Below, piece after piece: positions 1 to 47,624 of a stretch of DNA of 64,000 nucleotides. Position 1 is the stretch's first letter; the number at the start of each line of letters is the position of its first letter. Location of the stretch: the IMG/VR virus record IMGVR_UViG_3300043395_000420, positions 29,246 to 93,245 of that record; one strand, given 5' to 3'. Source of the DNA: a virus. Made by a program: the position numbers and the translations under genes. The notes beneath the pieces were generated by a model. The model did not search any database and had not been told where the DNA came from. It saw only the letters and a list, made by a program, of their open reading frames with translations.

Positions 1-1522
1 TTGCTGCAGAATACTTAGCATCTATCGCTTCCTTGAGAGGGATAAGAGTATCATAAAGTATTTCGGAAACACCATCTGTATAAATACTATTTGTATGTAC
101 TTTACTTTGTACCATCCTACTACGAATCTTTGTGATAAGTTCGTATAAGGGACTGTCACTATCTATACCTGCTTTAGTAAATGTCTTCTCATATTCTTTA
201 ATAAGAGACTCCATAGTACTAAGTAATGAGTTAAGATAGAACGCAGTTTTTAAACTGTCTTTGTTATTTACATCTTTAGATATTTCTCTTAGTTGGTCAT
301 TAATACGTTTAACCATAACATCCAACTGCTCTATACTATTAATAAACGCGAGCATTTGTGCACGTTCATAGGTAGCATCCTGCATTGCTTGGTCTATACC
401 GTTTTGGTAATCCTTTAGTAAAGATCTAATCTCATTAATATCTTTACGTTCATATTCATTCTTAAGTTCCGACAGGGCCTCTCTAAACTCCCGGTCATTC
501 TTCATCTTCTTAAGTATAGATTGTACACGGTCATATAAGCTACTAATAGAACTCTGTAGTTTACCTTCATTACGAAGAGTAATCAGGTCATTAATAAACT
601 TATCATGGTCAGCCGCATATGCCGCAAAAGAGTCATCAGTTACAAGTTCTTTATTAAAGGTAAACTGGTTATTGGCCTCAAGCATCCGGGCTAATTCAAG
701 TATAGAAGTAGATTCAGATAAGGAAGATATGTCAATACGTTTACCAAAGATCTTACGTAGTGCTTGTTTAATAGCATATAATATTTTCTGTACTATGGAT
801 GAGAGATTGGGAGAAATATTTTGTTGTAGAGATTTTAGGTTGGCAATGTCAGTTAACGTTTTTACTATCACCTCCTCTGCAAAGTATTCTGTCCCTTCTG
901 CTAATGACGGATGAGATGCCTTGACATCTTCAATAATCTGTGGGTTGGTAGCAGATATTTCAGCATATAGTTTATCAAACAAAGATTTATTTTCTTTTGC
1001 TAGGGCCCTTACTATAGGATGACAGAACTCATGGAATACTGTCTTAGCCGTTACAAAGTCATTTACTAGATATACTGTATCTCCTAGAAAGAATCCGGGT
1101 TTACCATTTCTATACTGGTTTTCCGGTGCTAGATTAGCAGTTATTGCTGCTGCTTCTTCTGCTGTAACCATTCTATACTGTATACCAAGGTTACGTTGTA
1201 ATGCTTCTGCTATTTCTATTATTGCAGATCTAGATGACAGGTCTTTAAATACTTCTTTGTTTACTACAGGTTCTGCCATTACATGGTAGTCAGGTCTTCC
1301 GGCAACATATTGTCCGAAACCATCATACGTATCTGTAACTACTTGTTTATCAGATAGTTCTAATGCATAACCTTGATCGTTTAGTACAGGTAAGAACTCT
1401 TCAGGGGTAGGTAAACTATCCATGTTACGTTCTTTAGCATAGCGTAATGCCTTGTCAGCAAGATGCTGTCCAAACTTTTCTTTTAACGCGTCAAATTCCG
1501 GGGTGTTTCTACTGCAAGCCAT
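1..1522 (-). CDS. Large virion cargo protein with N-terminal zincin-like domain (partial, runs off the window start)
   Basis: Not in the ORF track. Manual translation from ATG at 1522 gives MACSRNTPEFDALKEKFG...TVFHEFCHPIVRAL...FAEEVIV. HExxH at 1019-1033 plus a downstream EE. TAATG overlap with the RNAP stop. Position matches the third large crAss-like cargo gene. Confidence 0.85.
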   Translation of the reverse strand, partial: MACSRNTPEFDALKEKFGQHLADKALRYAKERNMDSLPTPEEFLPVLNDQGYALELSDKQVVTDTYDGFGQYVAGRPDYHVMAEPVVNKEVFKDLSSRSAIIEIAEALQRNLGIQYRMVTAEEAAAITANLAPENQYRNGKPGFFLGDTVYLVNDFVTAKTVFHEFCHPIVRALAKENKSLFDKLYAEISATNPQIIEDVKASHPSLAEGTEYFAEEVIVKTLTDIANLKSLQQNISPNLSSIVQKILYAIKQALRKIFGKRIDISSLSESTSILELARMLEANNQFTFNKELVTDDSFAAYAADHDKFINDLITLRNEGKLQSSISSLYDRVQSILKKMKNDREFREALSELKNEYERKDINEIRSLLKDYQNGIDQAMQDATYERAQMLAFINSIEQLDVMVKRINDQLREISKDVNNKDSLKTAFYLNSLLSTMESLIKEYEKTFTKAGIDSDSPLYELITKIRSRMVQSKVHTNSIYTDGVSEILYDTLIPLKEAIDAKYSAA

Positions 1523-4500
1523 TATATACTACAACTTAAAATATCATTTAATATGTCATTAGTTACTTCGGTGTCTGATACTACCTGGTCTCTTTGAACT
1601 TTTTCCGACATCTCTACAGAACCTTTAGCAAATACTCGTGGTAAAGAATTAGGATTTATATAACCAAATGCATCATACAGCCTCTCAGACAAATATACGA
1701 AAGTTTTAGGTGCGGATTGTGGATTTGCCGGTACATTTTCTTCAACAGAACCTATAACCATTCCATTTTCTTCCCATCTATTAATCATAGACTGACCCAT
1801 ACCTCTAAAATTAAATCTTAATACTTTGTCAGGATTAAGTTTCATTTTTTCTACTAGGGCCTGAATAGCAGCATCTATCTGTTGAATGTTATAGTTATAC
1901 TCTTCTTCAGTTTCTTCTACTAGTAAACCTGAAGGTGTAATAGTATTAGTTGTTTTATTCAATGTTCCCTTTGGTTTTCCTGTTTTAGGATCTACGGGTA
2001 TTGCTAAGAACTTAGTAGGTATTCCAAAATAGTTATCTGGTCCTAGACCTGCTAAAACGGCTGATGTTTTATTTAGATCTGTAGTATTAGCAGTACGGCC
2101 AGGTTTTGCCATTACGGTATCAGTTACAAATATTACATTAGGATTAGCCTCTTTAATCTTTTGAATATCAACAGGTTTAAGATTATCAGGAGTTAATGTA
2201 AAATCATATACAGGTATGCCGGTTCCGTTTTGTAAACCTACCATGAACCCATTAGGATTAGATGCTTGTGTAGGTTGAGTAATAGTAGACTTTGATACTA
2301 TTTGCTGGTTAGTACTTACAGAAATTTGAGTAGGTTTAGACCAAGTACCAATAACTTGTCCATCTACTGTAATTTCAGAGTAATTATATCCAGCTTGTTT
2401 CATAGCATCATATAATCTTTTTTCTCCTGTGTTATAGTCACTAGCGTCAGTATAGGCTTTGTTATCTGTAAGAATAGTAGCACCTGCTTCAACAGCCTTA
2501 ATAGCTTCAGCTATTGTTCTATCTTGTTGAGTTTTTTGCTGTTCTTCAGTACCTCTTTTACCACCAATAGATACAAAAATTACATCATTAACTGAATAGT
2601 TACCTGTATTAGCAAAATTACCAGCTTGTTCTCTATATAAATCTGTAGAACTGCCCTTTATACCTTCTCCAAATCCTATATATTGTGTAGCTATGCTGGC
2701 TTTAATAACTGCTTTTTTATCAGCAGCTTGTATAGGTTTTACCGTAAATATATTTTTCTTAGTAAATTTATCACCTGTACTTACAGGAGCTTGTGATTGA
2801 GATGGTTGTACTACTTCAAATTCTATAGCATAAGGATAATTACCCACATGTCTATCTGTAACAGATTTAACCCAACCTTCTTTTTGCCAAGTAGCATCTT
2901 GATACTCTTGTGTAAAAGGAGATACTTTAGTAATTCTAGTATAAACTTGTCTACCTGTATTATCAGTCATCCGGATAACTTTACCAACTAAGTCTTCAAT
3001 TTTAGAAAGATTATAGTCTTTCATCATTCTAGAAACATCAGTCTTAGCTCTAGTAGTTCTAGTTCTATCTCCAGAAATAATAAGATCCATGGTAGATTTA
3101 TCTTTAAACTGTGGTTGCATAGTTCTTGTTTTCCACACATCTCCTTCTTTATATTTAGAACCATCGGCAAAATTTTGTTCAATAGCTGGTAAACTATCAG
3201 CTACAATAAACTCATTACTTACAGGTTCTTGTGCAGGTTCTTCACCAACAATTTCTGGAGTACCTAATTTTTGACTAGTAGCAATATAGACCATATCAGT
3301 TGCTCTAGATACAGCCACATATTTTAATTCTTGCTGTACGTTTTTGTCTTTGAAACTGTTAATAGTATCATCTAATATCAATACTTTAGTATAAGTACCT
3401 CCTTGAGATTTGTGAATAGTATGAGCATACCCGTAGTCAAAAGTTTGATTAAATAAAGTTTTACCATTTTGAATAACAGGTTTCATTGAAGTTATGGCAT
3501 TTTCATAGTCAGATGCTTTTTGAAAATATGATGCTGCAGCACGAATATCTCCATCTTTTTTTAACCTAGCCCCTGCTTCTCTTAAATCTTTAATAGTTTT
3601 TGATAATCTTATTAGTTTAGAATCATCATCATTAACATCTGCTACAAATATTACTTCTGGTTTTTCATCGGCTTTTCCTAATAGATTTTGAATAGTTACC
3701 TTATAACCTTTAAATTCAACTTTATCACCCAATAAATCTAAAGTTACAGTAGAAGGTTTTATATCTAATACTTCATAGTCACCACTATTCATTATTTTAT
3801 ACTGACCTGTTCTATAATTTTTATCAAAGTTACTTCTTCCCATTATCAGGTCTCCGACAACAAGTTGCTGTTGAGCAGCATCTCCAAAAAGTAATTTTCT
3901 AACTTCTTTATTTTTAGCAGTTACTACAGCATTAGTAGCAGATAAAATTCTAAAGTATAACTTATTTTTTGCAAACTCTGGACTTAAGAAGTTTTCTTTA
4001 ACAGCTTCGTTTACAAATGTATTGTTATCACCATAAACTACTCCTATACCATTAACTACTTTTGTTTTATAGTTAAGTTCTTTACCATTACGCAAATTAG
4101 TAGACTCTTCTAAAATAGGGTTGTCTCCTGTTCTTTCTACCTTAGTTAATTGCAACTGGGTTCCTTTATCAAAAACTTTTGATAGGTTATCTTGTCCTAC
4201 AGGTCTTAACTGTGCAGGATCTCCCATGTATATAATTTTAAGATTAGAATTTTTCTTTTTTTCTTCTTGAATAAAAGCAAATAAACCATCAGCAACCATT
4301 GATGCTTCGTCTAGTATAAGCACGGTAGACTCGTCTGGTTTTAATACACCTTTATTTTGTTTAGCAAAGTTTAGTTTTGCAAGATCATACTCTTCTTCAA
4401 AATTAAAATCAGGATTTAAACCAAACAATGAATGTAATGTATACACTCTTACATCTGGATTTTTAAGTTTTGTTACAGCATTTGCTCTATTAGTAGGAGA

Positions 4501-7500
4501 TGTATAAATAATAGAATCTAATGATACCCTTTGCAGGTATGCATCAAATATTTTCATAATACTAGTCTTACCTGTACCGGCATATCCTTTTAAAGTAATC
4601 TGATTATCATAAGCAGCAGGGTTTTTATAAAACTTTTCTAGTTCTAATAAAGCCTCTGTCTGTTGATCATTTAATTTAAACGGTGTGCTAATAGTAACAC
4701 CGTCACTAAATGTCATAGTATTAGCAGGTTGTGATTGATTAGGACTAATTTGACTAGACTTAGGCTGTCTGAATGGTTGTTTATTTTGAGGATCAATATT
4801 TGGATTATTATTATAAGCAGCTAATAATTTTTCTTTTGCTGACTTTTTACCCTTATAGTTTAATACATCAACACCAACACCGTTTTCTACTTTTATTTTA
4901 TACATTGCTCCAAAGTACTTATAGTCATCTTCAAAAGATGTAGGTGTTTCTTCAAATAATTCAAATATGCTTTCTTCTTCAGTTTCAAACTTGTAACCTG
5001 TTTTCTCTAGAATATCTACAAACTCTTTAATAACAGCATCTTTTTTAGAACTAAGTACAACATTTGCAAAGTTTGGATCATAGAAAGTTCTAAATCTCTT
5101 CGCAATATTACTTTTTGCTTGAGAGTTAGTTCCTATAAATATCTTTCTATACTGATCAAATAATAGTTCTGTTAGTTTATTATTTGAATTAGGTACTGCT
5201 TCTAACTGAGTTACGGTATCAATAAACTTACTAACTGGTTCAGCTAGTAGTTCTGATATAACTTTGCTATCTGCAATACTTAATATACTAAATGTACTAT
5301 TAGGATTACTTCCACTTTGTAAGTATGCAACAACATCAAATCTATTAAAGAACTTACTGATATTCTCAGCATCAATGGCAGATATACCAAACTTATCTTG
5401 TAGAATACTAGGGTTCTTTAGTTCATTTAAGTTTTCAGAATATAGATTCTTCTGGTCAATTTCTAATAATGTATCCCTAAACCGTAATGTATTTACGTTT
5501 GCTTTAACATAACTAGAATATGATGATGCCATACTAGAGAATACATCTACTTCTAATGCAGATAATAGATCATAGTATTCTGTAATCTTTTTGAAAGCCG
5601 GATTAGATACAATTTGATCATACTGATATGCATAAGAGTTATTTCCGGTAAATATCCAATACGGTAGATTTATATTATTAAGAGCATGATTACGTAAATA
5701 TGTTTCATACGCCCAAAGTTTTACAGTTTCCTTATTAATGGTGGTAGATTCACCCTTACGTAGTAAAGTTTTGTCTAGATATTTTTCAGATAGTTCTTTT
5801 TCTATCTTCATGTACTCTGCACTTAATGCAACAACAGAGTATTTATAGTTAGGTAATGCTCTTAAACTCTCTCTTTCATATAAGTATTTCTTGTACATAT
5901 CTGCTTCATTTACTCCGGTAAACACATTAGCAGGTAAAGGAGCAACATCTGCATCTAAATACTGTAACTCATTGGAATAGAACTTGTTATATAAGTTTTC
6001 AGCTATAGAGTTTTGATCAACATATATCTTTCCGTCTTTATAAATAGCTGCTCTTCTTGCATAAGGAACTGTAGCAACATCTAACTCAGAGTTTAATACA
6101 TAACTTCTATAGTGTTTATTACTAGGTAATGTAAAGTACCAGTTATAAAATATATAAGGACTAAGTTGCTTCTTGAAATTATCAATTACGGAAGCCTTAT
6201 CAAATGTTACATTTACTCTAGTTTCTCCCATTCTCATACCACTTATATAAGATTCAATATTGGGTTTAGCAAAATATGAATTTATAGAAGTTGAGTTACT
6301 TAAAGGGAAGAAAGGTTCGTATAAACCAATCATAAACTCTTGTATTTTAAAACTACCGATAGGTGAGTTTTTAATAATACTTTCATAAACATCAGGATCC
6401 AAACCTTTAAACTGAGATGCTTTAATATCTTTTCTTAACTGAACTCTAGCATCGTGTAAAGAACTACTTCTTGTAGTATCAAATTTAGTAGCCTGCTTAA
6501 TCTCTGTTAAACCTTTAGACATCTCCAGGATTTCCATAAAATGTAAAAATACATTTCTATCAAAATCTGTATATACGTCTTTGGTTTTATCATCATTAAG
6601 GTTATCTAAATTATCTTCTAATGCCTTTTCATTAAAATAGTTTTCATCAAGATTAGTAAGAGCAATACGGAAATAGTCGTATAGTTTATTTTTAGCAACT
6701 CTTACTTTACCATTAATAGCATTGTATCTATAGTTCTTTGAGTTATCAGGATAAAAACTTTCTTCATTTAATCCAAATCCGTATTTAGAATTTTCTCCAA
6801 ACAAAATACTATCTCTAGCATCAGTATTATGCTGATTAAGTTCAGACTCTTTTCCTAGTACACTAGAGAAAGTTCCTTTTCTAGAACGAGCATCTGTAAT
6901 ATACTCACGTATAATTGGTTGTGATAAGAATAATACAGCTTGGTTAATGGGTACCCCGGTTTGAATTAAGAATAATAATACAGGAGTAAGTTCTTTATTA
7001 CCCTGTAAGTCAAAGATCCATTCGTCTTTTTCTACGTCAACCCAACCATTAATCAACTGGTTAAACAAGTCAGATATCTTATAGAAGTTATTTTTATCAT
7101 AACTATGTGATAATGAGATTCTTTGTTCTCCATTTACATTCATAGTATTATGAGGTAATAATAACACATTACGCATTAAATCACCTGCTTCATTAATTAC
7201 TTTTACATCTGACATGTAAGCACCGATACGGTTAAATACTACGTTAAATGTATTATCTACTGCACCAATACCAAGGGCTTGTTTACCTACAGAGTTATAC
7301 TCTAATTTAGCAAGGTTATACAAAGGCTCATATATACGAGTAGGAGAGAATCCGTTTGGTTCTCCGTTAAATCTTTTCTTTGACGAGTATACACGAGTTT
7401 TGTCTCTGAGTTTTTCTGATATAGGTTTAACAATAGTTGTACTATTAGGGGTAATTAAACTTACAAAGTTTTCAGGATCTAATATAAGATCTTTAGTAGC

Positions 7501-10500
7501 AAGTAATAACTGGTTTTCATATGCAGCCTCATTATCCATTTTCTTAATGAAGGCCTCTTCTGATGTAGCAAGATTATAGTTTTTAAGTATTTCTATAATT
7601 TCACTTTCAGTATAACCCATATCAAACCATTCTTCTCCTAGAGCAGCAGTAAGTATTGTATTTAATAGTTTATTAGACTGTTCAATATCAGTAGAGAATC
7701 TTTTAACAGTAGGACTTACATCACGCGTTAAAGCTCTACGTACAACATCTTTATCATATACTAAGTTACCTAGTTCATCTACAGTACTATTAATTACTTT
7801 AAACTCTTCAACTTCTATTGCTTTAGATTTTAAATTTTGGTATAGTTCTTTAAGGGCTGCTTCACCTCTAACATTTGCTATAGTTAGTTTTGAATTACCT
7901 TTTAGACCTTCCCATCTTAGTACTGGCATTTGAATACTAAGTTTATCAATGTCAAAGTCAGCACCAGACTTAGCAACAATTTCAGTTGCTGGTATGATCA
8001 TATTACCTGCTTCTTCTGGTAAGAATTCTGCAACATGCATTACTTCCATAGAGTTCAAACCTTGTACAGGAATACGAACCCCTACCATAGTTATCATGTC
8101 ACGGTTTTTAGATAACCATTTCTCATCTCTAATAATACTGTTTAGAGCATCTAGTTTAGAAATGTTTTCTGCTTTTGCTTTTCTTGTAACCTCGGGTAAA
8201 CTAAGTAACTTTTTAAAATGACCTTGTATAGATATTTTAACCTCCATACCATTACCAGGAGTATAGAACTTCAAATCATTTGTACCAGAGTACTTTCTTC
8301 TTTCTTCTTCTGTTGCATTTCTAAACTTACCTGCCTTTTCAAATCCAGCACTTGATGCCTGAATTAATGCTTCTCCGGTAACTTTTTGACGGATTAATCT
8401 TTTATTTACTACAGCCGTTAAAAGTTTTTCTATCTGTGAACTAAAGTTAGACAGATCAAGATTAACCATAGGGGCACTCTTTAATGCATCTATGAACTCT
8501 AACTCGTTATCAGATATTTCTTGACGGGTAAGTTGTTTTTCTATAAAGTCAATAAACTTAGTAAGATCTTTAGGACCTTTATCTGTCCAACCTAATTCTT
8601 CAACAAGTTGTTTTTTCTTAAACTCTGTAAGTTGTTTTAGAGCAGACTCATATCTTAAAATCTTAGTATATAGTTTAGACTCTGATTTTTTTACAGATTC
8701 ATCTTTTATAGCATTCCATGCATCATATCTTTCTGTTAAGTCTGTAATTTCTGGTTTAAAATCTACAGGTACTCCATTTTCAAAAGAACCTTCTTCTACA
8801 AGTTTACGTAACTGAGTAGAGAATATAATCTTCTCTTTAAACTCTGGCGCAACTTCTACTTGGTCTTTTAAATAATCTAAATAGATAACGTTCTTGCTAA
8901 AGGTAAATTCTGGTTCATTTAAAGCCAACCAACCTTCTTTGTTTGCATAAAACTTATCAAAGTTTCCATCATTAGTAACAGTTGCAAGTTTAGATCCTGA
9001 TGCAAATACAGCATAATCTATATCTTGCTCTACCATTTTATTATGTAGTTGTTCTAGTTTAGTACCTTTAACTACTGTAGGGATTAATGGCATTAATGAA
9101 AACTTATGAAATGCTTCTACAGGTAAACCGGTTGTAGCCAATGTTCCCCAGTACTGCATCTTTTTAATAGGAAAGAAGTTTGCAATATCTTCTGCAGAGA
9201 CATCATCTCCATTTAGAATTCTAACATATAACTTTTCATGAAGAGTTGTCCATTTATCTAAACCTCTCATCATCAATCTATAAGCATCAAAACTAATCCA
9301 TCCTTGAGCATCTCCTTCTTTCATTCCAGCATATGCATCATCAAATATATTATCTATATTTTGCATTGCTTTATTAATAGTATCCTGAGACGCGTTGGTT
9401 TTAGCAAGACGTTTTCTTTCTTTATCTTTTGCTGCTTTCTTATACTCATCAATATATACAGATGTGCTTACTACATCGGCTAATACTGCAGTATTAAATG
9501 TACCATTATAATCACGTTGACCTACAGTTGTACCATCTGCTTTTGTTTTGGGTCCGGTGTACCATGCAGATTCGGCATACTTACCTTTCTTAGCAGGTTT
9601 ATTTACATAGTTTTGGAAATGTATGTCTGTTCTAGGAGTTTCTCCAGTTGATCCGATACCGGCATTACGTTTATGATACTCTTCTTTTGAGTGATTATAT
9701 ATACCAGGATCTCCATAGTATACAAGACCTGTTTCAATATTATGTAATAACTGATTAGCTGTATATGCTTCTATCAATTGACGGCTAAGTTCTTCTCGAG
9801 TATACTCTTTTGTGTCTCCTACAATTTTTAATATATTAGGAGATAATAAATATCTAGAATCAAAAATACCTTCTTTTTTAAACTTATCTATTACTTGTTG
9901 ATATTGATTCTCTAAGTAACTATTTACCTGATTCTGATATGTATTAGCAAACTTTTCATTAGTATTTAATAGGTTCTTGAAATCTGCTGCTGTGGTAATA
10001 GTTCCCTTATCAATAAGGTTATAAATTTCTGTTTTTTGATCTTCGGTTAAGATATCATCAAACATGATAAACTTAGAACCTACTTCTGCAAGAGTTACAG
10101 GTTTACCTTTCTTTTCATATAAAACTATATTTTTAGCATCAGGATCTGTTTTTGCCTTATGAATTCTTTCAACTTCAGAACTTAAATAACCCATGTATGC
10201 AGCAAGAACTTTAGATTTTCCTGTACTAGATGTTGGATCTTTTGATGCAAACATTTTAGGATTAACATAGTGCTTTGATCCATCTGCGTGTATAATCTGA
10301 TATAGGAAAGTACTACTCTTACCTGCGTGACGTGTTGCTTCAGATGTACCATAGATCATCATCATATAGAAGTCTTGTAGCATTTTAGTAGTCATATCCG
10401 AGTCTGATGACTTAAGACCTACTAAATCTATTTGCTCTCCTATACGCATCTTTGTGCCGTCCATATCAAGAATATTAATTCTTGCATTTAAAACTTTACC

Positions 10501-13500
10501 GGTAGCAGTTACACCTTGGCGTTTAATTTTTTCAGGAGTACTCATGTCAAAAAGAATGTTCATGAGCATACTGTTTTGCATCCAAGGATTTCTATTCAAT
10601 GAAAGATTATTCATTATGTAAATAGGCATACCATTTACATTCTCTGTATTGTCTCTTACTAAATCTTCATAATTAATAGCATTGTTGATACTATCTGTTT
10701 TTCTGGTAATTGTGTTGGGTAATGAGTTTTCATACTTAGTTTTACCAGTAGTAGTTGTAATTGTACTATTAGAAAAATCTCCTGTCCACTGTAAATATAA
10801 ATTACCTAATGTAGTTTTAAAACCTGTAAAAGGTTGAAAAGTAGATTCTTTATACTGAGATTCTTGTTTTAAAAAGGCTTCTCTTAGAGACTTATCTTGT
10901 ACAAGTTTATCAAATGATTTATCAAGTAAGTCTGTTACTCTTGTAAGTTTTATAGGTTCTGCACCTGGTCTATTTAATTTTAACCAGGTATTAAATGCAT
11001 TTATTGCTCTTACTTTATTTTTTAAACCGTTGATTTCGTACAAGTTACCGTTTTCTTTACTAGACAAAGCATTCTTAACAACACTTAATTCTGGCATATA
11101 TAAACCAATAGCCTTTAAAAATGTAATAGGATCTTTTGAAATTACACTAGTAGACATGTATAGGTCTGATGTAAGTTGTTCAATATTAATACTTACAGCC
11201 CCTGTATCAGATGCCTTTACTCTATAAGGTTCTGTTTCACCAGATCTTGTAAATCTAGAGTTAAACAACTTAAATACTTTACTGCTTTCACGACTAGCAT
11301 TTCCAGGACGGATTGTTATATAACTTATATTACCCTTACTGTCTTTAGTTTGCTCAATATCTAAGTTTACAACATTAATTCTAGGTAAGGTAAACAGTTT
11401 ATTTATTTGTCCCCACATACTGTTTTCTAACTCACCTTTAATATTATCAGGATTACCAACCTTCTTTAAGAATGCTTTTACAATAGGAAATAGTTCTTCT
11501 ACTTCCTTTAGTTTATCATAAATTTCTTTAGGGTTACGGGCCCCTTGTGTAATATTTATTAATAAGTTTTGTGCAGTACGTGCTGGTACCATCTTAGGGA
11601 AACCTAAGTCATTCTTCTCAACCTCTCCATTATCATTATATGCTATTAATGTAGACAATGTATAAGATAACTTCTTGTCTATCATGTTATTAATAGAAAC
11701 TTCATTTCCGGACTTATCAGCATATTCTGATCTAGATGTTGTATTATCGTCTTTATCAGCCATGTCTGGTTCAAATGACTGGATATAGTTTTTTTCATAG
11801 TAACTAAGGATTGTTTCTCCTTCTTTAGGATTCATAGGATCCCCGAAGTTGTCTAACATCCATGTTGCTAAATCTATACGGCTTTTTATTTTAATCTTTC
11901 TTTTTTCTGCAGCCTTCTCATATTTTTCTTTTAAACTCTCAATATGGTTTACTAGCTTTTCCTGTACTTTTAAATATGCTGCCTTACGCATTGATGCCTC
12001 AGATATAATACCTATAGTTAAACCTTTAGTATTATACTCATCATTAAGGTCATCAATACTTTCTGACATCAAACCATTCATGCTTTTCATGATAACAGCA
12101 GTGTCGGATAATGATCTGTTTTTAATTTTATTAAGACCGGTTTCTATAAATACAGCATCTGGTTCAAAGACCGGCTCTCCTAATTTACCTACAGCAAGTT
12201 TTTCAAACATCTCTGCTACTTTAGCATTTGCTGTATAGTCTGCTTGGGTTTCTCTAATAGTTGTGTTACTAAATAAATACTGTAATAACTCAAATATCTT
12301 ACTGAAAATCTCTGCAATAATACCTTTGCTCTTGGAGTACTTACCTTTTCCACCACGTAGCATGTGTTCGCGGAACTGTTCTGCTAACCATTCTTCTTTT
12401 TCTAACTTGGTAGCATTTTTAAATTCAACAGTTTTACCGTTATAATTTTCAAATGATCCTTTCATTTGACCAACTGCGTTGTAAAGATCTTCTCTTTGTT
12501 TAGCAGTTAAAAATATTTGAGAAAATGCATGCCATGCCTCATGGTATAAATCAGAAGCATCTGCCCCTTGCCATAAAGTAATACCTGCTAAATTCCAATG
12601 TGCTACTACAGAAGGATCTGTATTAACTGCATCAAACATTACTGATATCGGTACTACATCTGATAACATTCTACCATCAGCAAGTCTGATACTATTATAC
12701 CAGGGTAATGCTGCATTAATAACATCTTGAGATGACTTAGCAGTACTTGGTTTTCTACCTGCTCTTAGTAACAAACTGTCATCTATAAGATTATTTTTCT
12801 TGATTGTATTACTTGCAGATTGGGTTTTAGTTTCAGGTTTTACTTCAGGTATTTTCATACCTAAACTTTCTAAAGCTCGTTTATTAATTTCGTTTTCATA
12901 ATCTGCTGTTGTGGTTGTGCCAGAAACAGATTTATCAAACTCAGTTCTTGAAAGTTGAGAATGTTGATATTCATGTTCTATAACAAAAGACTCCCATTCT
13001 TCATATGTTTTAAACATATCTTCAGGAAAGGCATTTGCACTAGAACCATCTTTTTGTATGCGGGGTGTTGTCCAGGCTTTACTTTCAAACTTACTTTTTA
13101 ATACTGGTTTATTAACGTATATGGTATTATTAGTGCTATTATACTGTGCTCCACCTGGTTCTCCTGTCTTAGAAGTTATTGCCTTTTCTATAATAGGAAC
13201 ACCTTTATAATTTTCTTGAGTACTTTTTGTAATTTCTTTTTTAGTTACTGTACCTGGCATGAATTCTAAATAAGCATTCATTGGTACAAAGTCTCCATTT
13301 TCAACTTTATTTGCTACATAAGCATGCTGTCTTATAAATTCACCATAAGGAATAGTATCAATTTTTGCAGTATATGTACCATCAGCGTTTTGACGTACAT
13401 TACTAAATGTACGCACGGTTGTCATATTATTTTTATATAGATATAGACCGCCTCCCTCGTTATTTACTATAGCATCTGCTATTAAATCTCTAGCATTTGT

Positions 13501-14781
13501 TGTTGTACTGTCTACAGTTTTACCATCTATCTTAATAGAAAGTTCTTCTCCTTTCTTCATTAATACTATACGACCACTTCCTACAGGTAAAAAGTAAAAG
13601 AAGTTTGCTTTATCACTTTCTTTTAGAGTAACCGTCTGTTCCTTTTTTTGATATGATATAGGATTAAGAAGAAAATCCGCCATTTCCAGTGCCTCCTCCA
13701 TAGTAATGCTGTCCATATATATTTGGACATCTTTATTCATAGATGGAGAACTGATGTATATAGAATTATCAGGGCCCTTTTTTAAATTTAGATTTGGGTA
13801 TATTGTTTTAGATAAATCCGTTAATCTTGTTTTATCTGCAGCCATTGTTAAGAAACCAACGTCACCGTTAGTTATCTCATTGATAATGATGTTATTAGCA
13901 GGATCTCTTGCAATAGAACTTGTCATTTTGTCTACTGTTTCTTTCTGCTTACGTTTTTCTTCTGTATTTGGATTTTGTACAGTTTCTAACTTGGTTCTTA
14001 CATAAAAGTATACAGGCTTACCATTTGTTTCAACATATTCACCATTACTATTAAACTCTAAAGGATTTCCTTGAGCATCTGTAAGTACCTGTATATAAAT
14101 TTGATCTAAGTATCTTAGTAGTTCAGGATTATCTTCTATATCTGCAAGTTGTCTGCTGTCTAATTTATCTAGTGGAATTCTGCTTAATGCCATTGTTGTA
14201 AGATATACCTTTCCAGAATATCCTTTAATGGTCATATTAGCAGCCATCATGTTTCTGATAATTGTATAAAACATTTCTACAGAAAAGTTTTCTTCTTGTC
14301 CTGTAGTAGTAAACATGCTGTCTGGAACAGGATAGTCTACTTGTTTTATCAATTGTGAGTTTACTTTAGCATTAACATCATCTTCTGCTTGCTGGTTTCC
14401 GGCAATAGTTGCTGCTTCTTGCAGGTCAGTTTTAGTTATAGTTTCAACACTGATATATTTGGCAACAGTGTTTAGATCTGGATTAGTTCTCCATTCTTTT
14501 GCTAACTTGTTATTACCATTAAGATCAAAATTAGTATCCGTCATATAATCAGATACGGCAACATATCCTGCAGCCTGTCTAATCATATCGGGTACTAGAT
14601 GGGCATATGACAATGCCTTATCTTTATCTTTAGACTTTTCTAAAACATAGTCATACAATTCTTTAGCAATTGCTTGAGGATCAATGTTTTGTTTTTTGTT
14701 TTTTACATCTTCTATAGATTCTCTAACAAATCTATATACGGATGCTAAGGATTCATTACTGTCTATTGCGCAAAAAGCCAT
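1522..14781 (-). CDS. Virion-packaged DNA-dependent RNA polymerase (crAss-like, phi14:2 gp66-type) with zincin, SF1B helicase and ASCH-like accessory domains
   Basis: Catalytic motif GADFDIDK (~7943-7966) preceded by RIPVQGLNSM. Also DAQGWIS, STQLRKL and HExxH motifs HEYQH and HEAWH. C-terminal GYAGTGKT...DEASM...HKSQG helicase motifs. 4419 aa. Confidence 0.92.
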   Translation of the reverse strand: MAFCAIDSNESLASVYRFVRESIEDVKNKKQNIDPQAIAKELYDYVLEKSKDKDKALSYAHLVPDMIRQAAGYVAVSDYMTDTNFDLNGNNKLAKEWRTNPDLNTVAKYISVETITKTDLQEAATIAGNQQAEDDVNAKVNSQLIKQVDYPVPDSMFTTTGQEENFSVEMFYTIIRNMMAANMTIKGYSGKVYLTTMALSRIPLDKLDSRQLADIEDNPELLRYLDQIYIQVLTDAQGNPLEFNSNGEYVETNGKPVYFYVRTKLETVQNPNTEEKRKQKETVDKMTSSIARDPANNIIINEITNGDVGFLTMAADKTRLTDLSKTIYPNLNLKKGPDNSIYISSPSMNKDVQIYMDSITMEEALEMADFLLNPISYQKKEQTVTLKESDKANFFYFLPVGSGRIVLMKKGEELSIKIDGKTVDSTTTNARDLIADAIVNNEGGGLYLYKNNMTTVRTFSNVRQNADGTYTAKIDTIPYGEFIRQHAYVANKVENGDFVPMNAYLEFMPGTVTKKEITKSTQENYKGVPIIEKAITSKTGEPGGAQYNSTNNTIYVNKPVLKSKFESKAWTTPRIQKDGSSANAFPEDMFKTYEEWESFVIEHEYQHSQLSRTEFDKSVSGTTTTADYENEINKRALESLGMKIPEVKPETKTQSASNTIKKNNLIDDSLLLRAGRKPSTAKSSQDVINAALPWYNSIRLADGRMLSDVVPISVMFDAVNTDPSVVAHWNLAGITLWQGADASDLYHEAWHAFSQIFLTAKQREDLYNAVGQMKGSFENYNGKTVEFKNATKLEKEEWLAEQFREHMLRGGKGKYSKSKGIIAEIFSKIFELLQYLFSNTTIRETQADYTANAKVAEMFEKLAVGKLGEPVFEPDAVFIETGLNKIKNRSLSDTAVIMKSMNGLMSESIDDLNDEYNTKGLTIGIISEASMRKAAYLKVQEKLVNHIESLKEKYEKAAEKRKIKIKSRIDLATWMLDNFGDPMNPKEGETILSYYEKNYIQSFEPDMADKDDNTTSRSEYADKSGNEVSINNMIDKKLSYTLSTLIAYNDNGEVEKNDLGFPKMVPARTAQNLLINITQGARNPKEIYDKLKEVEELFPIVKAFLKKVGNPDNIKGELENSMWGQINKLFTLPRINVVNLDIEQTKDSKGNISYITIRPGNASRESSKVFKLFNSRFTRSGETEPYRVKASDTGAVSINIEQLTSDLYMSTSVISKDPITFLKAIGLYMPELSVVKNALSSKENGNLYEINGLKNKVRAINAFNTWLKLNRPGAEPIKLTRVTDLLDKSFDKLVQDKSLREAFLKQESQYKESTFQPFTGFKTTLGNLYLQWTGDFSNSTITTTTGKTKYENSLPNTITRKTDSINNAINYEDLVRDNTENVNGMPIYIMNNLSLNRNPWMQNSMLMNILFDMSTPEKIKRQGVTATGKVLNARINILDMDGTKMRIGEQIDLVGLKSSDSDMTTKMLQDFYMMMIYGTSEATRHAGKSSTFLYQIIHADGSKHYVNPKMFASKDPTSSTGKSKVLAAYMGYLSSEVERIHKAKTDPDAKNIVLYEKKGKPVTLAEVGSKFIMFDDILTEDQKTEIYNLIDKGTITTAADFKNLLNTNEKFANTYQNQVNSYLENQYQQVIDKFKKEGIFDSRYLLSPNILKIVGDTKEYTREELSRQLIEAYTANQLLHNIETGLVYYGDPGIYNHSKEEYHKRNAGIGSTGETPRTDIHFQNYVNKPAKKGKYAESAWYTGPKTKADGTTVGQRDYNGTFNTAVLADVVSTSVYIDEYKKAAKDKERKRLAKTNASQDTINKAMQNIDNIFDDAYAGMKEGDAQGWISFDAYRLMMRGLDKWTTLHEKLYVRILNGDDVSAEDIANFFPIKKMQYWGTLATTGLPVEAFHKFSLMPLIPTVVKGTKLEQLHNKMVEQDIDYAVFASGSKLATVTNDGNFDKFYANKEGWLALNEPEFTFSKNVIYLDYLKDQVEVAPEFKEKIIFSTQLRKLVEEGSFENGVPVDFKPEITDLTERYDAWNAIKDESVKKSESKLYTKILRYESALKQLTEFKKKQLVEELGWTDKGPKDLTKFIDFIEKQLTRQEISDNELEFIDALKSAPMVNLDLSNFSSQIEKLLTAVVNKRLIRQKVTGEALIQASSAGFEKAGKFRNATEEERRKYSGTNDLKFYTPGNGMEVKISIQGHFKKLLSLPEVTRKAKAENISKLDALNSIIRDEKWLSKNRDMITMVGVRIPVQGLNSMEVMHVAEFLPEEAGNMIIPATEIVAKSGADFDIDKLSIQMPVLRWEGLKGNSKLTIANVRGEAALKELYQNLKSKAIEVEEFKVINSTVDELGNLVYDKDVVRRALTRDVSPTVKRFSTDIEQSNKLLNTILTAALGEEWFDMGYTESEIIEILKNYNLATSEEAFIKKMDNEAAYENQLLLATKDLILDPENFVSLITPNSTTIVKPISEKLRDKTRVYSSKKRFNGEPNGFSPTRIYEPLYNLAKLEYNSVGKQALGIGAVDNTFNVVFNRIGAYMSDVKVINEAGDLMRNVLLLPHNTMNVNGEQRISLSHSYDKNNFYKISDLFNQLINGWVDVEKDEWIFDLQGNKELTPVLLFLIQTGVPINQAVLFLSQPIIREYITDARSRKGTFSSVLGKESELNQHNTDARDSILFGENSKYGFGLNEESFYPDNSKNYRYNAINGKVRVAKNKLYDYFRIALTNLDENYFNEKALEDNLDNLNDDKTKDVYTDFDRNVFLHFMEILEMSKGLTEIKQATKFDTTRSSSLHDARVQLRKDIKASQFKGLDPDVYESIIKNSPIGSFKIQEFMIGLYEPFFPLSNSTSINSYFAKPNIESYISGMRMGETRVNVTFDKASVIDNFKKQLSPYIFYNWYFTLPSNKHYRSYVLNSELDVATVPYARRAAIYKDGKIYVDQNSIAENLYNKFYSNELQYLDADVAPLPANVFTGVNEADMYKKYLYERESLRALPNYKYSVVALSAEYMKIEKELSEKYLDKTLLRKGESTTINKETVKLWAYETYLRNHALNNINLPYWIFTGNNSYAYQYDQIVSNPAFKKITEYYDLLSALEVDVFSSMASSYSSYVKANVNTLRFRDTLLEIDQKNLYSENLNELKNPSILQDKFGISAIDAENISKFFNRFDVVAYLQSGSNPNSTFSILSIADSKVISELLAEPVSKFIDTVTQLEAVPNSNNKLTELLFDQYRKIFIGTNSQAKSNIAKRFRTFYDPNFANVVLSSKKDAVIKEFVDILEKTGYKFETEEESIFELFEETPTSFEDDYKYFGAMYKIKVENGVGVDVLNYKGKKSAKEKLLAAYNNNPNIDPQNKQPFRQPKSSQISPNQSQPANTMTFSDGVTISTPFKLNDQQTEALLELEKFYKNPAAYDNQITLKGYAGTGKTSIMKIFDAYLQRVSLDSIIYTSPTNRANAVTKLKNPDVRVYTLHSLFGLNPDFNFEEEYDLAKLNFAKQNKGVLKPDESTVLILDEASMVADGLFAFIQEEKKKNSNLKIIYMGDPAQLRPVGQDNLSKVFDKGTQLQLTKVERTGDNPILEESTNLRNGKELNYKTKVVNGIGVVYGDNNTFVNEAVKENFLSPEFAKNKLYFRILSATNAVVTAKNKEVRKLLFGDAAQQQLVVGDLIMGRSNFDKNYRTGQYKIMNSGDYEVLDIKPSTVTLDLLGDKVEFKGYKVTIQNLLGKADEKPEVIFVADVNDDDSKLIRLSKTIKDLREAGARLKKDGDIRAAASYFQKASDYENAITSMKPVIQNGKTLFNQTFDYGYAHTIHKSQGGTYTKVLILDDTINSFKDKNVQQELKYVAVSRATDMVYIATSQKLGTPEIVGEEPAQEPVSNEFIVADSLPAIEQNFADGSKYKEGDVWKTRTMQPQFKDKSTMDLIISGDRTRTTRAKTDVSRMMKDYNLSKIEDLVGKVIRMTDNTGRQVYTRITKVSPFTQEYQDATWQKEGWVKSVTDRHVGNYPYAIEFEVVQPSQSQAPVSTGDKFTKKNIFTVKPIQAADKKAVIKASIATQYIGFGEGIKGSSTDLYREQAGNFANTGNYSVNDVIFVSIGGKRGTEEQQKTQQDRTIAEAIKAVEAGATILTDNKAYTDASDYNTGEKRLYDAMKQAGYNYSEITVDGQVIGTWSKPTQISVSTNQQIVSKSTITQPTQASNPNGFMVGLQNGTGIPVYDFTLTPDNLKPVDIQKIKEANPNVIFVTDTVMAKPGRTANTTDLNKTSAVLAGLGPDNYFGIPTKFLAIPVDPKTGKPKGTLNKTTNTITPSGLLVEETEEEYNYNIQQIDAAIQALVEKMKLNPDKVLRFNFRGMGQSMINRWEENGMVIGSVEENVPANPQSAPKTFVYLSERLYDAFGYINPNSLPRVFAKGSVEMSEKVQRDQVVSDTEVTNDILNDILSCSI

Positions 14782-14791
14782 TGTATTATAA

Positions 14792-17700
14792 TTAGCAAAT
14801 GTTAATGTTATTCTTTGCGGAGTTTTTATCTCCGTTAACTTCTTTTTCTATTTGGTTTTTAGTTTCTTCAGTAAGTTCTGCTATACTTGCAGATATATTT
14901 TCTGCGGCCTGTTTTTGTGCTTCAGGGTCTGATACAGCACCAGGCATAGCTAGGTCTCCTGTTTGACTATATACACCTATAATAGTTTTGTCAAATACAT
15001 TTTTAGTCATTGGTGCACCTGTTCCTTTCATACCTATTTTTTTATAATATAATTTAGACTTGTACATACCGGTAACATATAGTAGTTCACCGGTATTCGT
15101 TACTAAGATATGGCCTTTTTTTACATCTACAAAATTAGGAGTAGAAGAAACTTGTTCTAATTTTTCTTGTAGTTTTTTCTCTGCTTCTAATCTACTGACT
15201 CCTATGAAGTTATAGTCATCATCAGTAAATAAACTAAGTTCATACATCATATCTTTGACCGCAGTCATAGAGTCTAAACTGTCAATTTGCTCTAGCAAAG
15301 GTTTGCTTGTAAGGTTTAGAGTAGTTCCTTGTGGAGAAACGTTTCCTTCTAGTACATCTAATACATTATCTGTATCTACTGTAGCATATTTTTTATCTTT
15401 TCTTGCTAACAACTCATAGGATCTTCTGTTTTGTACAATGTCTGGATCAGACTCAGTTCTAAAATATACAGAAGTATCTTTAGGCACTATTACTAAATCT
15501 ATTTTACCAATGTATAAAGGTGATAAATAGTTTTGTGAACTTGTAACAACAGTGTATCCTTTATTTGCTTCTCTTCGCATTGCATCTAAGGCAGCACCAT
15601 ATGCTGATTGTATTGCATCACGTTGAGCATTTCCTGCAGGATCATTTGCCAAGGAGTCAAAGAATTCTTTAACTTTTTGATACATGTTTTCTTTAGTAAC
15701 ATCTTGAAATAACTCTATACCAGAATTTTTAAATGCTTCTACTATAAAGTCATCTCCAGATATTATGGCAGCATCTGTATCAAATGCTGTTTGCGTATCC
15801 ATACCGGAACTTACATATACAATACTTCCTTTGAACATATCCAAAACTTTTGAATCTGGATTAACATCAGGTATACTAGTTTGTACCGGTGCTTGTTCTT
15901 CTTCTGTAAAGTTCCACTCATTACTATTTAATAAAGCCGTAAATACAGTCTCTGCATTTTTAATAGGTGTAACTACTGGTGTAAGAGTTCCTTGTTGATT
16001 AACTTCTTCTGCTGAAACTATCTTACCCTCTTCAACTTTAAATACAATAGATCTAGACATTGATGGTCCGTTACCTTTCCAATTTGCTGTAACTTCACCA
16101 TTTGTAATAGTAATTTCAAATGCTGGAGTTGTAACAGGTACAAGTTTAGGAGCATTGGTAACTTTCATACCAGATCCTTGATAATTATCTATAACATCAT
16201 ACTGCGTTACATCAATATTCTCATCCTGTTCTACAAAACGATATCCTGTAGGAGGTATGACAACATTATCCGGTTTAGTTCTATTTGTCAGAATTATATC
16301 TCTAGCTTCTTCAGGAGTCATTGCGTTAATATCATCAGGACTATACTTTAATCTTCTTAATGTATTTTTCTCCTTTGGTGTCAAAGGATTAGGTCCTGTC
16401 ATAGTACCTGCTGCTGGAGTAGGTTGTGCAGCACTTGCTACTGAAGCATTATAGTCAGATATTATTTTAGCAGAATATGAACTAGTTTTAACCCATTCTT
16501 CAAAATCATCTTCTTCTCCATTATATGCAGATCTTAACTGATTTTTTAATTCAGTTGGCATTGCATTATAAGGTGTATTTACTGTAATCTCTTGATCTGT
16601 TTTAGCAATAGTTTCTTTAAAATATACTCCAGAAGGTTCTAACTTATTGGAAGCCAATGCAATAGTCTCATCTAAAATAGTATTTTCATTACTTACACCT
16701 AATATACTACGAAGTACTTGCCTAACTGCCTCAACAAAGTCTTCCCATAAAGTAGTTGTTTTCTTTTCAGTTTTTACTAATTCAAGTAGTTGCTGAAATG
16801 CAGGATTAGTCAATGCTTCTGTAACAAAAGATTCTATACTATCTACAGGCATCATAGCACCTTCTAATCCTAAACTCTTTAGACTATTATCAAGATTACC
16901 ATTATCTAATGCATTTTTAAATTCTGCTATAAGATTATTAATGGCTGTATTAAACTCTGCATTAGTACTACTTTCTGATATCATCATTGTAGTAATACCA
17001 TTAATTAAAGAATACTCAAAGTTAACATTACCTCCTTGATATTCGAACGTAGAGTATCTAGGATCTATAATTAATCCGTTAACAGGATCATATGTATTAT
17101 AGTTTGTATGATCTAGTTTAATAGTTGCTTTTCTATCTCCTACTAATGGTCTTAGTCTTTGTGCTAATTTTTTAGCAACTATACTGCTTTCAGAAGAGTT
17201 AATAATAAAATCTAATAGTTTCTTTAACTCTACTTCTCCACCGGTCTTTGGGTCAAACCCTAGTTCTTTTGCTAGGTCTGCTATAGTTCTATTATCGTTA
17301 GTATCTCTTCTAGGACTAAACTTACCCATTGGTACATTAGCACCTGTAATGGGTTTATTGGTTGCAGTCTTTCCGGTTAACTGTTCTAACTTATCTACTA
17401 ACTCTATTATCTTTTGATATCTTTCATCATTAGGTAATATTTGTTTAAGGGTAGTTGCATCATAAAAAGAATCTGGAATTCTATTTTTATCTACTAAAGC
17501 ATCTACATCTTTAGGATCAAAAAATACATTCATGTTCTGTAACTCATTGATAAACATATTATTAATATGCATCTCCATGAATTTTTCAGACATTTCTTTT
17601 ACTTTAGCCTTTGCAATTTTTTGAGATTCTTCAATAGCCGTTTTAATACGTTGACTCATTGTAGCAAAGTACTCAGGATCTATTAATCTGTTTACAAACT

Positions 17701-20583: not shown

Positions 20584-23500
20584 TTATTTTTTTCTTCTAG
20601 CATTAACTTGTTGGTCATCGTACTGCGCAAGCATTAAAATATTTTGATCTAAGGCACTACGTAGTGTAGATAAATCTCCACCGGGTCCTAACTGAGGATA
20701 TAATTCTGAACCATAATATCCTCCAGGATTAGCTAAAACATATTCACCGTCTTTATATACTTTTGTATTATCGTATAAAACTCTATTCCCATTGATATCT
20801 TGTTTAATTTCATAATAACCAAACCTACTATTAGGGTTACCGATCATAATAGATCCTGTTAAATTAAGAGCAGCCTCATCTGTTGTAAGTTTAAACTGAT
20901 TAAACATCTGTGAATTAGCAGCACTCTTATCAAATATCATAGTAACTGCTCCTGTTGGATTAGGATTCTCATCTGCGGATCCAAGTAAATCATCCCATGC
21001 CGTTTTATTTTTTTTGCCAGAATTAGCATTCAAATAACCTGTATTAGGTATAAAAGTTATAGCAACTTTGTTTCCATCATTTGCTGCAATATTAAAGGCC
21101 TGCATTTTAAATGCTGCTCTATCTGCTTTACCTTTAGAATCTTTTTTACTAGAGTTCATAAATGCATCAACCAACTGAGCCATTGCCTGTTTTGCAGCAA
21201 ATTGACTTTCCTCAGATATGTCTTCAAGATTTTCTTTCATAATATCTGCACCTGATCCTGGTACGAATATAGCATTCATATCATATGGATATTCTAATGC
21301 ACGCATCACATCTGTCTGTATAGCATTAATTGCTAGTAGGTTTTCATTACTTGATGCTCCTAACATAGGATCAACATTATAACTCATACCTGTAGAAGTT
21401 TGTCCTGATGTACCTCCCATAGGATTAACATCAGTTCTAAGATATTTATTATATCTACCATCTTTGTTTGCCTTCCATAATGTTTCGGTCAAATTTTCAT
21501 ATACTTCCTCAGCATCACTCTTCATAACATCCATTCTAAATTTACTTACATCATATGGTCCTATACGTCCTACTTTTTGAGTAGGGTATGTTTGTAGATC
21601 ATTCATGTATGCTTCTTGATACCTTTTTACAAACTCTTCTTTAGTAACTTGCCAACCGTTATCAGGATTAATAAGTAAACCAAATCTCCAGTCATCTGCT
21701 TTTAGGTTATCTACAATATAATTAAGATTATATTTACGTGCTTCATTGTATTGATTTTCAATCTTTTGGCCTTGTTCATATGATGTTATAAGTCTATCAT
21801 ATGCTGTACCCATTTCACTTGCAGCAGAGTAGTATAAATCATTAAAGTCCTTAGAGTTTCTAAATGCCTTAATTCTTTCCATAGTTGATTTATAGTTGGA
21901 AGGATCATTAAAGTCATTTCTTTTATCTTGATTAGGATTAAATACATAATTGCCATTAGCATCTTTTGTTACATATCCTCCTTTTATAGTTACTGTTTTG
22001 TATGGATTTTCATCACCTACTGCCCAATCATATACTGCTTCAGGACCTGCTTGTAGCCAGTCCCATGCTCTTCTTCCAAAAGAACCTAGTTTATTTCTTG
22101 AATAGTCAAATGCTCCTGCTCCGGGTGATATACCTTGAACATAATTTTCAAAACTATTGCCAAACTCTGCCTTTGCATTAGCATCTAGTTCATCCCAGTC
22201 TTGTCTTAAATTTTCTTCATAGTTACCTATTTGTTCTTGTTTAAATTCTCCAACACCAAATAACTCTTCTATTTTTTTAGCAGCATACTGTTTTTGAGCA
22301 GCATTTCCATTTTGATGTAAATGATTTAAACTTTCAAAAATAGACTGAAAAGTAGCAGTTGATACTTCTCCTATACCTTGTTGAATTTGACTAATCTTTT
22401 CTTGTAATATTTCATCAGCCATTTTATTAGGATCTGTATTACCTTTACCATCTGGTATAGGTCTACCATTACCATTAGAACCCATTAGTTCCCTCATCAT
22501 CTTTTCTTCATCTGCGTTCCTTTTTCTGGTAAGTTTATCTTCATAATCCATTTCTGCTATACGCAGTCTATGATTATAGTCGGCCATTGCATAGGGGTCT
22601 GCTTCAGTTTTAACCTTTTTAGTACCCATTGCATAATCTCTAGCAGCCTTACCAATAGTTTCTGCATTATATAATTCTGATTTTAAATAATCAGCACGTC
22701 TACGTAATACATCTAAACTAACTCCTTCATTTACAGAAGGATCTGTCATTCCGGTTACATTATCAGCATCTGTTTTAGCCTGCTCAATAACTTTTTTCTG
22801 TTCATCTAATCCAAATAGTTGTTCCATGATATCACCATCTGTATCAGGATCAACACCATATGTAGCAGCATTAGACTTTTTGATAGTCTTTTTGTCTTCT
22901 ACATCTTTTAAATCTTGAGTAAGACTTTGCTGTAATGATTTATTATATTCATCTGCTGCTGTAAATACAGAGTTAATGTATTCTCTTTCAGCAGCCTCTT
23001 CTCCTACTTCAGCAGCTTTACTTGCTACATAACTTTTTCTATCTACATAAGACTGGGTATCATACATCCTTCTAATTTGAGGATCTTTACCAATTGTCAT
23101 ACTAAGATATGATTCTAAAGTAGGTATTAATTGCTCACCATTTGTGGTTATCATTTTATATCTACCATCTTTAGTAAGACTTGGATACTCCATATTAAAC
23201 ATATCTTTATATTTATATATGGTGTCCATTGCCGTTTTATACGCATTGGTATATGGTACGTATTCTGGATTCTGTATATTGAAGATATCATCTTTGGATG
23301 CCTTCATAAAATCCTGCTCTAAGTAACTTAATGCAGAATCCCCTACATCCCACCATCTTCCACCGCATTCTTTTTCATCCATGCAGTTTTTAAAATAGTT
23401 ACTTCTTCCCCTCTGAACATCCATTGCTCTACTAAATACTATGTCTCTTTGTAGATACTTATCATCTAAAAGGGGTTGAAATACCTGTAAAGCATTATTT

Positions 23501-23766: not shown

Positions 23767-23834
23767 AGTTTATATTGTAAAGATACGAATAAACTTTATA
23801 AGTTTTAATAAAAGTTTTAAAGTTTAAAGTACTG

Positions 23835-26414: not shown

Positions 26415-26415
26415 A

Positions 26416-28608: not shown

Positions 28609-28648
28609 AATTGCGCTAATATACTGTTTATATATAAGATATTAAAAT

Positions 28649-42720: not shown

Positions 42721-43272
42721 TCAAGTTAAACCTAAAGTAGTTACAGCAATAGTTGCACTAATACTTTGTCCTAGATTGCAGTGGGTTGTTACTTTAAAAT
42801 AGTATTCTGTTGCTGCAGTTAGTGTAGAAAAAGTATAACTATTAGTATTTATAGGGGTAGCCGTTGACCAACTATCTCCTTGATTTGTGGATATACTAAC
42901 TGAATAGTAATTAGCATCTGTATTTTCCCAAGATAAAGTAATTGCTGTAGTTCCTATATAACTAGGATGCAACTTCAAAACGGGAGTACATAAGCTATCA
43001 TATGCATTAAGTGACATAAACTGATATACATTTTCTAAACTCATACCGGGTGTAAGATTGAACTGCATATATTCTGCAGGATTCATGTTTATACCAAAGT
43101 TTATAATTGTATAGTTTCTATGAATTACACATGTATCTTGTATAGTTTCGTAGCACGGAGTTGGATCCGGGCATAACGTATTAGGAGGACATGAATATGT
43201 CATAGGTGTAGTAAAAGGAGTATCCTTACAACTACATGTACTATTTGATGTTTTACAAGTTGAACAAGCCAT
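42721..43272 (-). CDS. Cys-rich structural protein with C-terminal fibronectin type III-like domain
   Basis: 183 aa with N-terminal CxxC/CPDPTPC..CV. C-terminal TAITLSW...YSV...YTFSTLTAATEYYFKV is an FN3 pattern. Confidence 0.7.
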   Translation of the reverse strand: MACSTCKTSNSTCSCKDTPFTTPMTYSCPPNTLCPDPTPCYETIQDTCVIHRNYTIINFGINMNPAEYMQFNLTPGMSLENVYQFMSLNAYDSLCTPVLKLHPSYIGTTAITLSWENTDANYYSVSISTNQGDSWSTATPINTNSYTFSTLTAATEYYFKVTTHCNLGQSISATIAVTTLGLT

Positions 43273-43282
43273 TGTTTATTGT

Positions 43283-44797: not shown

Positions 44798-44837
44798 CTT
44801 ATATATAATTTAATTCATTTTTACTTACTTTCAAAAC

Positions 44838-45716: not shown

Positions 45717-45718
45717 AA

Positions 45719-47604: not shown

Positions 47605-47624
47605 ATTTGTTGGTTTTTAAAGGT

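Follow-up and report, generated by a model that had tools for sequence, protein, structure and literature searches.

Paired terminal cysteines in the giant RNA-polymerase cargo proteins of crAss-like phages and a probable head-to-tail chain in the virion

The viral record IMGVR_UViG_3300043395_000420 (IMG/VR) is a single-contig phage genome of 93,245 bp, and its right-hand 64 kb, the stretch analyzed here (positions 29,246 to 93,245, 64,000 nucleotides; hereafter the window), encodes three giant proteins, termed A, B, and C, in which the few cysteine (Cys) residues lie mostly at the ends that face one another in the series. Gene A (14792..20581, minus strand) encodes the 1929-residue first member of the proposed chain, a protein of the crAss001 gp47 family that has no N-terminal Cys and whose sole Cys is its last residue (codon 14795-14797). 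Gene B (1522..14781, minus strand) encodes the middle member, a predicted virion RNA polymerase of 4419 residues with two Cys in all, Cys4 (codon 14770-14772) and Cys4417, the third residue from the end (codon 1531-1533). Gene C (2..1522 in the window, minus strand), encoding the last member, starts at position 1522 with a one-base overlap with the B stop codon; 507 of its 1875 residues fall inside the window, and the remainder of the gene is located upstream of the window in the genome. The C protein begins MAC, with Cys3 at codon 1514-1516, lacks a C-terminal Cys, and contains one more Cys, at residue 167 (codon 1022-1024), within a zincin motif that reads HEFCH. A preliminary description of this DNA had reported a 1929-residue protein with a single, last-residue Cys, a 4419-residue protein with two Cys at residue 4 and third from last, and a next gene starting MAC, and each of these readings is exact.

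The layout of the genome is crAss-like, with a minus-strand block in which terminase, portal, and capsid genes are followed by cysteine-rich tail-fibre-like genes and then by seven giant genes, A, B, and C among them. The B protein carries the sequence DFDIDK at residues 2275-2280, invariant in 31 homologues, matches g066, the characterized virion RNA polymerase of Cellulophaga phage phi14:2 (phmmer E-value 1.4e-25), and finds, by tblastn, RNA-polymerase genes in Crassvirales, crAss001 included. By motif and homology its class is that of the two-barrel RNA polymerases with a DFDxD catalytic motif, and the preliminary description was right to call it an RNA polymerase. A profile built from 50 A proteins (that of the window and 49 from related loci) matches crAss001 gp47 (E-value 7.4e-25), and a profile of C orthologues matches crAss001 gp49 (E-value 5e-31) and phi14:2 g065 (E-value 3.5e-20), matches that assign A, B, and C, on homology, to the RNA-polymerase cargo trio of crAss-like phages. 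Packaging of the trio is known only for these cultured relatives, since mass spectrometry has detected its members in phi14:2 and crAss001 particles; the cargo proteins are thought to leave the virion partly unfolded. The A, B, and C proteins of the window are most likely packed and injected by this crAss-like phage.

Cys is strikingly scarce in the products of this gene block. The seven giant genes together encode 9 Cys in 13,034 residues (0.07%), versus 1.44% in the remaining genome. At the frequency of the genome's other proteins, A, B, and C would be expected to contain ∼118 Cys, where 5 are observed (Poisson probability of five or fewer, ∼1e-43), and, given these counts, the terminal placement of the Cys has a probability of ∼1e-10. 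The earlier judgment that the terminal pattern is unlikely by chance is thus upheld by both calculations. Base composition was considered as a source of the depletion and rejected, because the B gene holds 2 in-frame TGY codons versus 58 and 280 in the other two sense frames.

The Cys positions were tabulated in orthologues across crAss-like phages, as the preliminary description had proposed, and the terminal Cys are conserved. A protein search with B returned 57 giant homologues (24-100% identity in the best local alignment), 43 of which have a Cys among residues 1 to 6 and another among the final 10; 34 of these 43 contain no other Cys. In an alignment of 31 B sequences (mean column identity 19%; 25-70% identity to the B protein of the window), C4 and C4417 are invariant columns. 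Within an alignment of the last 60 residues of B the Cys is the sole invariant column, and the same holds for C3 among the first 300 residues of 29 C sequences. The Cys has no fixed position, lying 3 to 6 residues from the start and mostly 1 to 10 from the end. The 31-sequence alignment was then used to scan IMG/VR, and 77 loci were taken of at least 537 relatives, with duplicates removed before counting; a locus scan with the N-terminus of B alone gave no match. At the A-B junctions of these non-redundant loci both facing Cys are present in 49 cases, neither in 5, and there are no discordant cases, while both Cys are present at 61 of 61 B-C junctions. The outward-facing ends are free of Cys: an N-terminal Cys occurs in 0 of 47 complete A orthologues, and a C-terminal one in 0 of 55 last members of the chain. 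Internal Cys are correspondingly rare, with 1 in 86,842 residues of A, 11 in 193,174 of B, and 12 in 110,222 of the last member, or 24 in ∼390,000 residues overall. The invariant columns and junction counts together indicate that the terminal-Cys pattern is a conserved rule and not a product of chance.

Loci in which the gene order departs from A-B-C bear directly on the pairing. An extra protein of 304-655 residues lies between B and C in four loci (L031, 19605-21572; L043, 17614-19365; L056, 17890-19080; L062, 8594-9508), and in 4/4 it has a Cys at both ends, as would be expected of a chain extender. That the inserted proteins are split-off parts of C is not supported, since the C profile does not match them, and they have no PHROGs or Pfam family. 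The inserted protein of L043 opens with a CP.K motif that is typical of C N-termini. Conversely, some polymerases have no N-terminal Cys, and these bear an N-terminal extension of ∼800 to 2,000 residues; in 5/5 such loci inspected there is no upstream protein with a C-terminal Cys. Two of these polymerases are A+B fusions, namely P0042, with an A-like region at residues 73-799 (phmmer, independent E-value 4e-38), and a protein of L057 that matches the A profile (hhalign probability 96-99%). Each contains exactly one Cys, at the C-terminus, and both junction Cys are gone, so that a peptide bond can replace a facing Cys pair. In a rough, quick FastTree tree of 108 RNA-polymerase cores, the state of the N-terminal Cys changes at least four times. 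Taken with the junction counts, the fusions show, at the level of sequence, that facing terminal Cys are kept as directional pairs, the C-terminus of the upstream protein with the N-terminus of the downstream one.

The same pattern is present in cultured phages. The homologous series g067-g066-g065 of phi14:2, which shares the gene order of the window, is an exact fit, with the Cys of g067 located only at the last residue, those of g066 at residue 3 and second from the end, and that of g065 at residue 3. In the homologous crAss001 series gp47-gp50-gp49, gp47 has one Cys, third from the end, gp50 has Cys at residue 5 and ninth from the end plus one internal Cys, and gp49 has one Cys, at residue 5. 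The crAss001 gp47 is encoded on the opposite strand from gp50 and gp49, and the pattern is therefore independent of gene adjacency; a nucleotide motif at the gene junctions is ruled out as its source for the same reason. Two-member versions also exist. Flavobacterium phage FpV4 encodes a 4287-residue protein with a Cys second from the end, followed by a 1596-residue protein with a Cys at residue 3 and one further Cys, and Leptolyngbya phage Lbo-JY46 encodes a 1552-residue protein ending in Cys, followed by a 2748-residue protein with a Cys at residue 4. In these two phages, a 598-residue protein of FpV4 (L084, 3874-5670) and a 674-residue protein of Lbo-JY46 (L087, 17334-19358) both start MKKKC, which holds their only Cys, and no neighbor with a C-terminal Cys was seen for either. 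The phages p-crAssphage and crAss002 are also two-member versions if an in-frame MSC, probably the true start, as the rule predicts, is taken as the beginning of the polymerase gene. The annotated RNA-polymerase fusions of CrAssphage ZA (L082, 12752-25027) and crAss002 (L083, 12086-24823) start 21 and 32 codons, respectively, upstream of an in-frame Met-Ser-Cys. In both, the zincin protein upstream of the polymerase ends with a Cys in the second position from the end.

The B protein of the window is double the length of the polymerases of its cultured relatives, from which it differs by an extra N-terminal region with a zincin motif, a Dda-like helicase, and further C-terminal domains. Its zincin-type HExxH sequence lies at residues 747-751 (window 12529-12543), and H747, E748, and H751 are invariant in the 31 homologues. 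A complete Dda/RecD-like superfamily 1 helicase is located at residues 3281-3836 (window 3274-4941); this region matches PHROG 325 (E-value 4.6e-82) and the Pfam families AAA_30 and UvrD_C_2, and the domain is found in many B homologues, though not all. The C protein has a zincin-type HExxH of its own at residues 164-168 (window 1019-1033), and its only internal Cys sits within the putative active-site helix. The peptide FHEFCHPI contributed to the recovery of the closest relatives, L001 and L002. An AlphaFold model of the C N-terminus (predicted local distance difference test score, pLDDT, 74) has weak, zincin-like matches only in the PDB (anthrax lethal factor and PPEP-1; E-value >0.01), and neither A nor the profile of the C N-terminus has a sequence match among solved structures. 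No PHROGs or Pfam family was found for A.

The closest precedent for such a bond comes from the cyanopodophage A4 (Anabaena phage A-4L), in which cryo-electron microscopy (cryo-EM) shows gp27 with its C-terminal helix lodged in a cleft of gp26 and held there by a Cys1715-Cys5 disulfide (PMC12002296, PNAS 2025). Like the A-B-C series, this is an upstream ejection protein with a Cys three residues from its end, followed by a product with a Cys at residue 5, both being otherwise free of Cys; in the A-4L genome record, gp27 (1717 residues) and gp26 (1114 residues) have one Cys each, Cys1715 and Cys5. The A, B, and C proteins and their relatives show the same sequence features, with a C-terminal Cys upstream, a Cys at about residues 3 to 6 downstream, and nearly no Cys elsewhere. 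A4 differs in that it has one link rather than a chain of two or more, in that no RNA polymerase is involved, and in that its bond was reported as a structural detail of a single phage and not as a conserved rule (PMC12002296). Searches of A, B, and C by phmmer against A-4L gp24-gp29 and gp31 gave no match even at an E-value of 10, and there was no A4 chain among the matches listed by Foldseek for the C N-terminus model. The likeness to A4 is, judging by these comparisons, functional and not familial, the same device appearing in unrelated proteins. In Schitoviridae, Cys is likewise suppressed in the giant proteins that are ejected (N4 gp50 and DEV gp71, gp72, and gp73), a virion RNA polymerase among them, and this suppression in N4-like ejection proteins has been published together with an earlier suggestion that relates it to passage through the oxidizing periplasm (PMC11445570). 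These proteins have no Cys at all, their ends included, whereas A, B, and C have been purged of internal Cys and retain one at each facing end. Disulfides between subunits form in the crassvirus particle, as seen in the tail of crAss001 (Bayfield et al. 2023, PMC10172136), but they join ring and hub proteins and not cargo proteins. The cargo Cys are mentioned neither in that crAss001 atlas (PMC10172136) nor in the preprint on the phi14:2 polymerase (bioRxiv 10.1101/2020.03.07.982082), which reports fusion of the trio in some phages, and targeted searches of one library of papers found no description of a terminal-Cys rule in crAss-like phages.

These observations make it probable that A, B, and C are joined head to tail in the virion through their terminal Cys, most likely by disulfides. 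The C-terminal Cys of A would bond Cys4 of B, and Cys4417 of B would bond Cys3 of C, the outcome being a single linear chain of ∼8,200 residues. The disulfides would be formed in the particle; within the capsid core, the links would set the order and stoichiometry of A, B, and C, and the chain may exit via the tail as one unbranched thread, the polymerase being freed by the reducing cytoplasm. Internal Cys would have been purged as other cross-links would give loops or branches, or would be targets of periplasmic oxidases. With regard to direction, the crAss001 cargo protein gp45 is expected to leave the virion N-terminus first. The core of the idea first put forward in the preliminary description, an ordered chain in which each C-terminal Cys meets the N-terminal Cys of the next protein, thus finds strong comparative support in the invariant columns, the concordance at junctions, the loss of both Cys on fusion, and the two-Cys inserts, and A4 provides a solved precedent. 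On the best-supported reading, what is added to the inter-protein disulfide of A4 is a multi-link chain with an RNA polymerase as a member, conserved among crAss-like phages. A broader proposition is put forward tentatively: in crAss-like phages, including the most abundant ones of the human gut, the injected RNA polymerase and its partners may form a disulfide-stitched, linear pseudo-polyprotein of 5,000 to >10,000 residues, built from a starter with a terminal Cys at its C-terminus alone, extenders with one at either end, and a terminator with one at its N-terminus alone. Its members would pass through the tail as a thread, in the order of their genes, and the reducing cytoplasm would dismantle it; the splitting or fusing of genes would then be equivalent to the gain or loss of a Cys pair.

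Several points weigh against a linked chain. The bond has so far been observed in no crAss-like phage, and gut crassviruses live without oxygen. In the crAss001 reconstructions, gp47, gp49, and gp50 are not resolved. The A, B, and C proteins have no sequence similarity to A4 gp27 and gp26, so that the precedent is one of analogy and not of homology, and the A4 bond stabilizes a folded pentameric core, which does not imply the threading of a linked train. Several internal polymerase Cys occur in some lineages (p-crAssphage, crAss002, and a few database homologues). Homology of the N-terminal extension to A has been shown for only two proteins, those of L057 and P0042; L066, L073, L077, and FpV4 gave no significant match to A, and L072 a marginal one. 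Co-folding of the first 300 residues of C with the last 60 of B returned a score of 0.00 in a run made without controls, which carries no weight either way.

The same bonds could have a purely static role, locking a folded core, or pre-ejectosome, in the capsid as in A4 and being broken or irrelevant before exit, with no linked train at any stage. The location of the A4 gp27-gp26 bond, in a pentameric ring above the portal, fits this account, and nothing in the present data speaks to the state of the proteins during ejection; however, if topology matters in passage, it would be easier to explain why Cys has been almost entirely purged from the interior of proteins thousands of residues long, and why an upstream C-terminus is so strictly matched to a downstream N-terminus, and no ordered core formed by the trio was seen in crAss001. 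A solely static lock is, for these reasons, considered unlikely. That the terminal Cys are not bonded to one another at all, and instead share a metal ion or anchor the proteins to the portal or inner capsid, is improbable, even though two Cys are present in the phage's portal and metal bridges were allowed for in the initial proposal. Independent anchoring would leave unexplained why no A has an N-terminal Cys and no C a C-terminal one, and why one junction Cys never occurs without the other (49:5:0) and both are lost on fusion; and as the Cys is the only residue that is invariant, or nearly so, near the C-terminus of B and the N-terminus of C, it has no conserved metal ligand, His or other, next to it.

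The counts of one, two, and one Cys in A, B, and C would equally well fit a B protein closed into a ring by its own terminal Cys, with A paired to C. Such self-closure is disfavored because the pair that goes missing consists of the A C-terminal and B N-terminal Cys, while the C-terminal Cys of B is retained where the N-terminal one is absent, and so is the N-terminal Cys of C; moreover, in the two-member systems (FpV4, Lbo-JY46, A4, and p-crAssphage) the pair consists of one Cys at the C-terminus of the upstream protein and one at the N-terminus of the downstream protein, and the ring is accordingly given very little credence. It is similarly far-fetched that the Cys belong to processing chemistry or recognition, as remnants of polyprotein cleavage or as nucleophiles of a thioester-type ligation that makes a peptide bond. 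The trio does form one polyprotein, thought to be cleaved, in some crAss-like phages (bioRxiv 10.1101/2020.03.07.982082), and both B and C contain zincin motifs, but half-sites would not remain invariant once the genes were split, the variable distance of the Cys from the end suits a tether better than a precise enzymatic site, and the fused forms have no Cys at the junction. No point was found in favor of chance, base composition, or wrong gene starts, and an explanation of this kind is practically negligible, being already refuted by the Cys statistics, the off-frame TGY counts, conservation in >100 lineages, and the opposite-strand location of crAss001 gp47.

The head-to-tail chain is of interest as the question of how megadalton-scale proteins are moved, in order, through a tail channel a few nanometers wide is open for both crassviruses and N4-like phages. 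The directional Cys rule supplies a concrete and cheaply testable model in the form of one linear, redox-releasable chain, and it would account for giant cargo proteins that are nearly free of Cys. It also predicts the chain membership of proteins in uncultured phages, corrects gene starts, probably including those of the p-crAssphage and crAss002 polymerase genes, and connects split and fused gene architectures. Two cultured phages that obey the rule, phi14:2 and crAss001, are suited to direct testing.

The remaining four giant genes of the block (20584..35137, minus strand) encode proteins of 1060, 859, 730, and 2162 residues, each of which has either no Cys or a single tight pair (C128/C134 or C274/C279) and no terminal Cys, and they are outside the A-B-C chain. 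No PHROGs or Pfam family was found for the 1060-, 859-, and 730-residue proteins. The C128/C134 pair provides the only Cys encoded at window 20584-23766, and is seen again in the related loci L009 and L042, while C274/C279 provides the only Cys at window 26416-28608. Tight pairs are also the sole Cys of crAss001 gp45 (C390/C398) and A-4L gp28 (C1036/C1039); with a spacing of 3 to 8 residues, the pairs in cargo-block proteins would close just a tiny local loop. The tail-fibre-like genes next upstream of the cargo block, at window 42721-48182, have an unusually high Cys content of 3.8-6.0%, and the same operon-like block thus spans both extremes, from Cys-rich tail-fibre-like genes to Cys-poor cargo genes.

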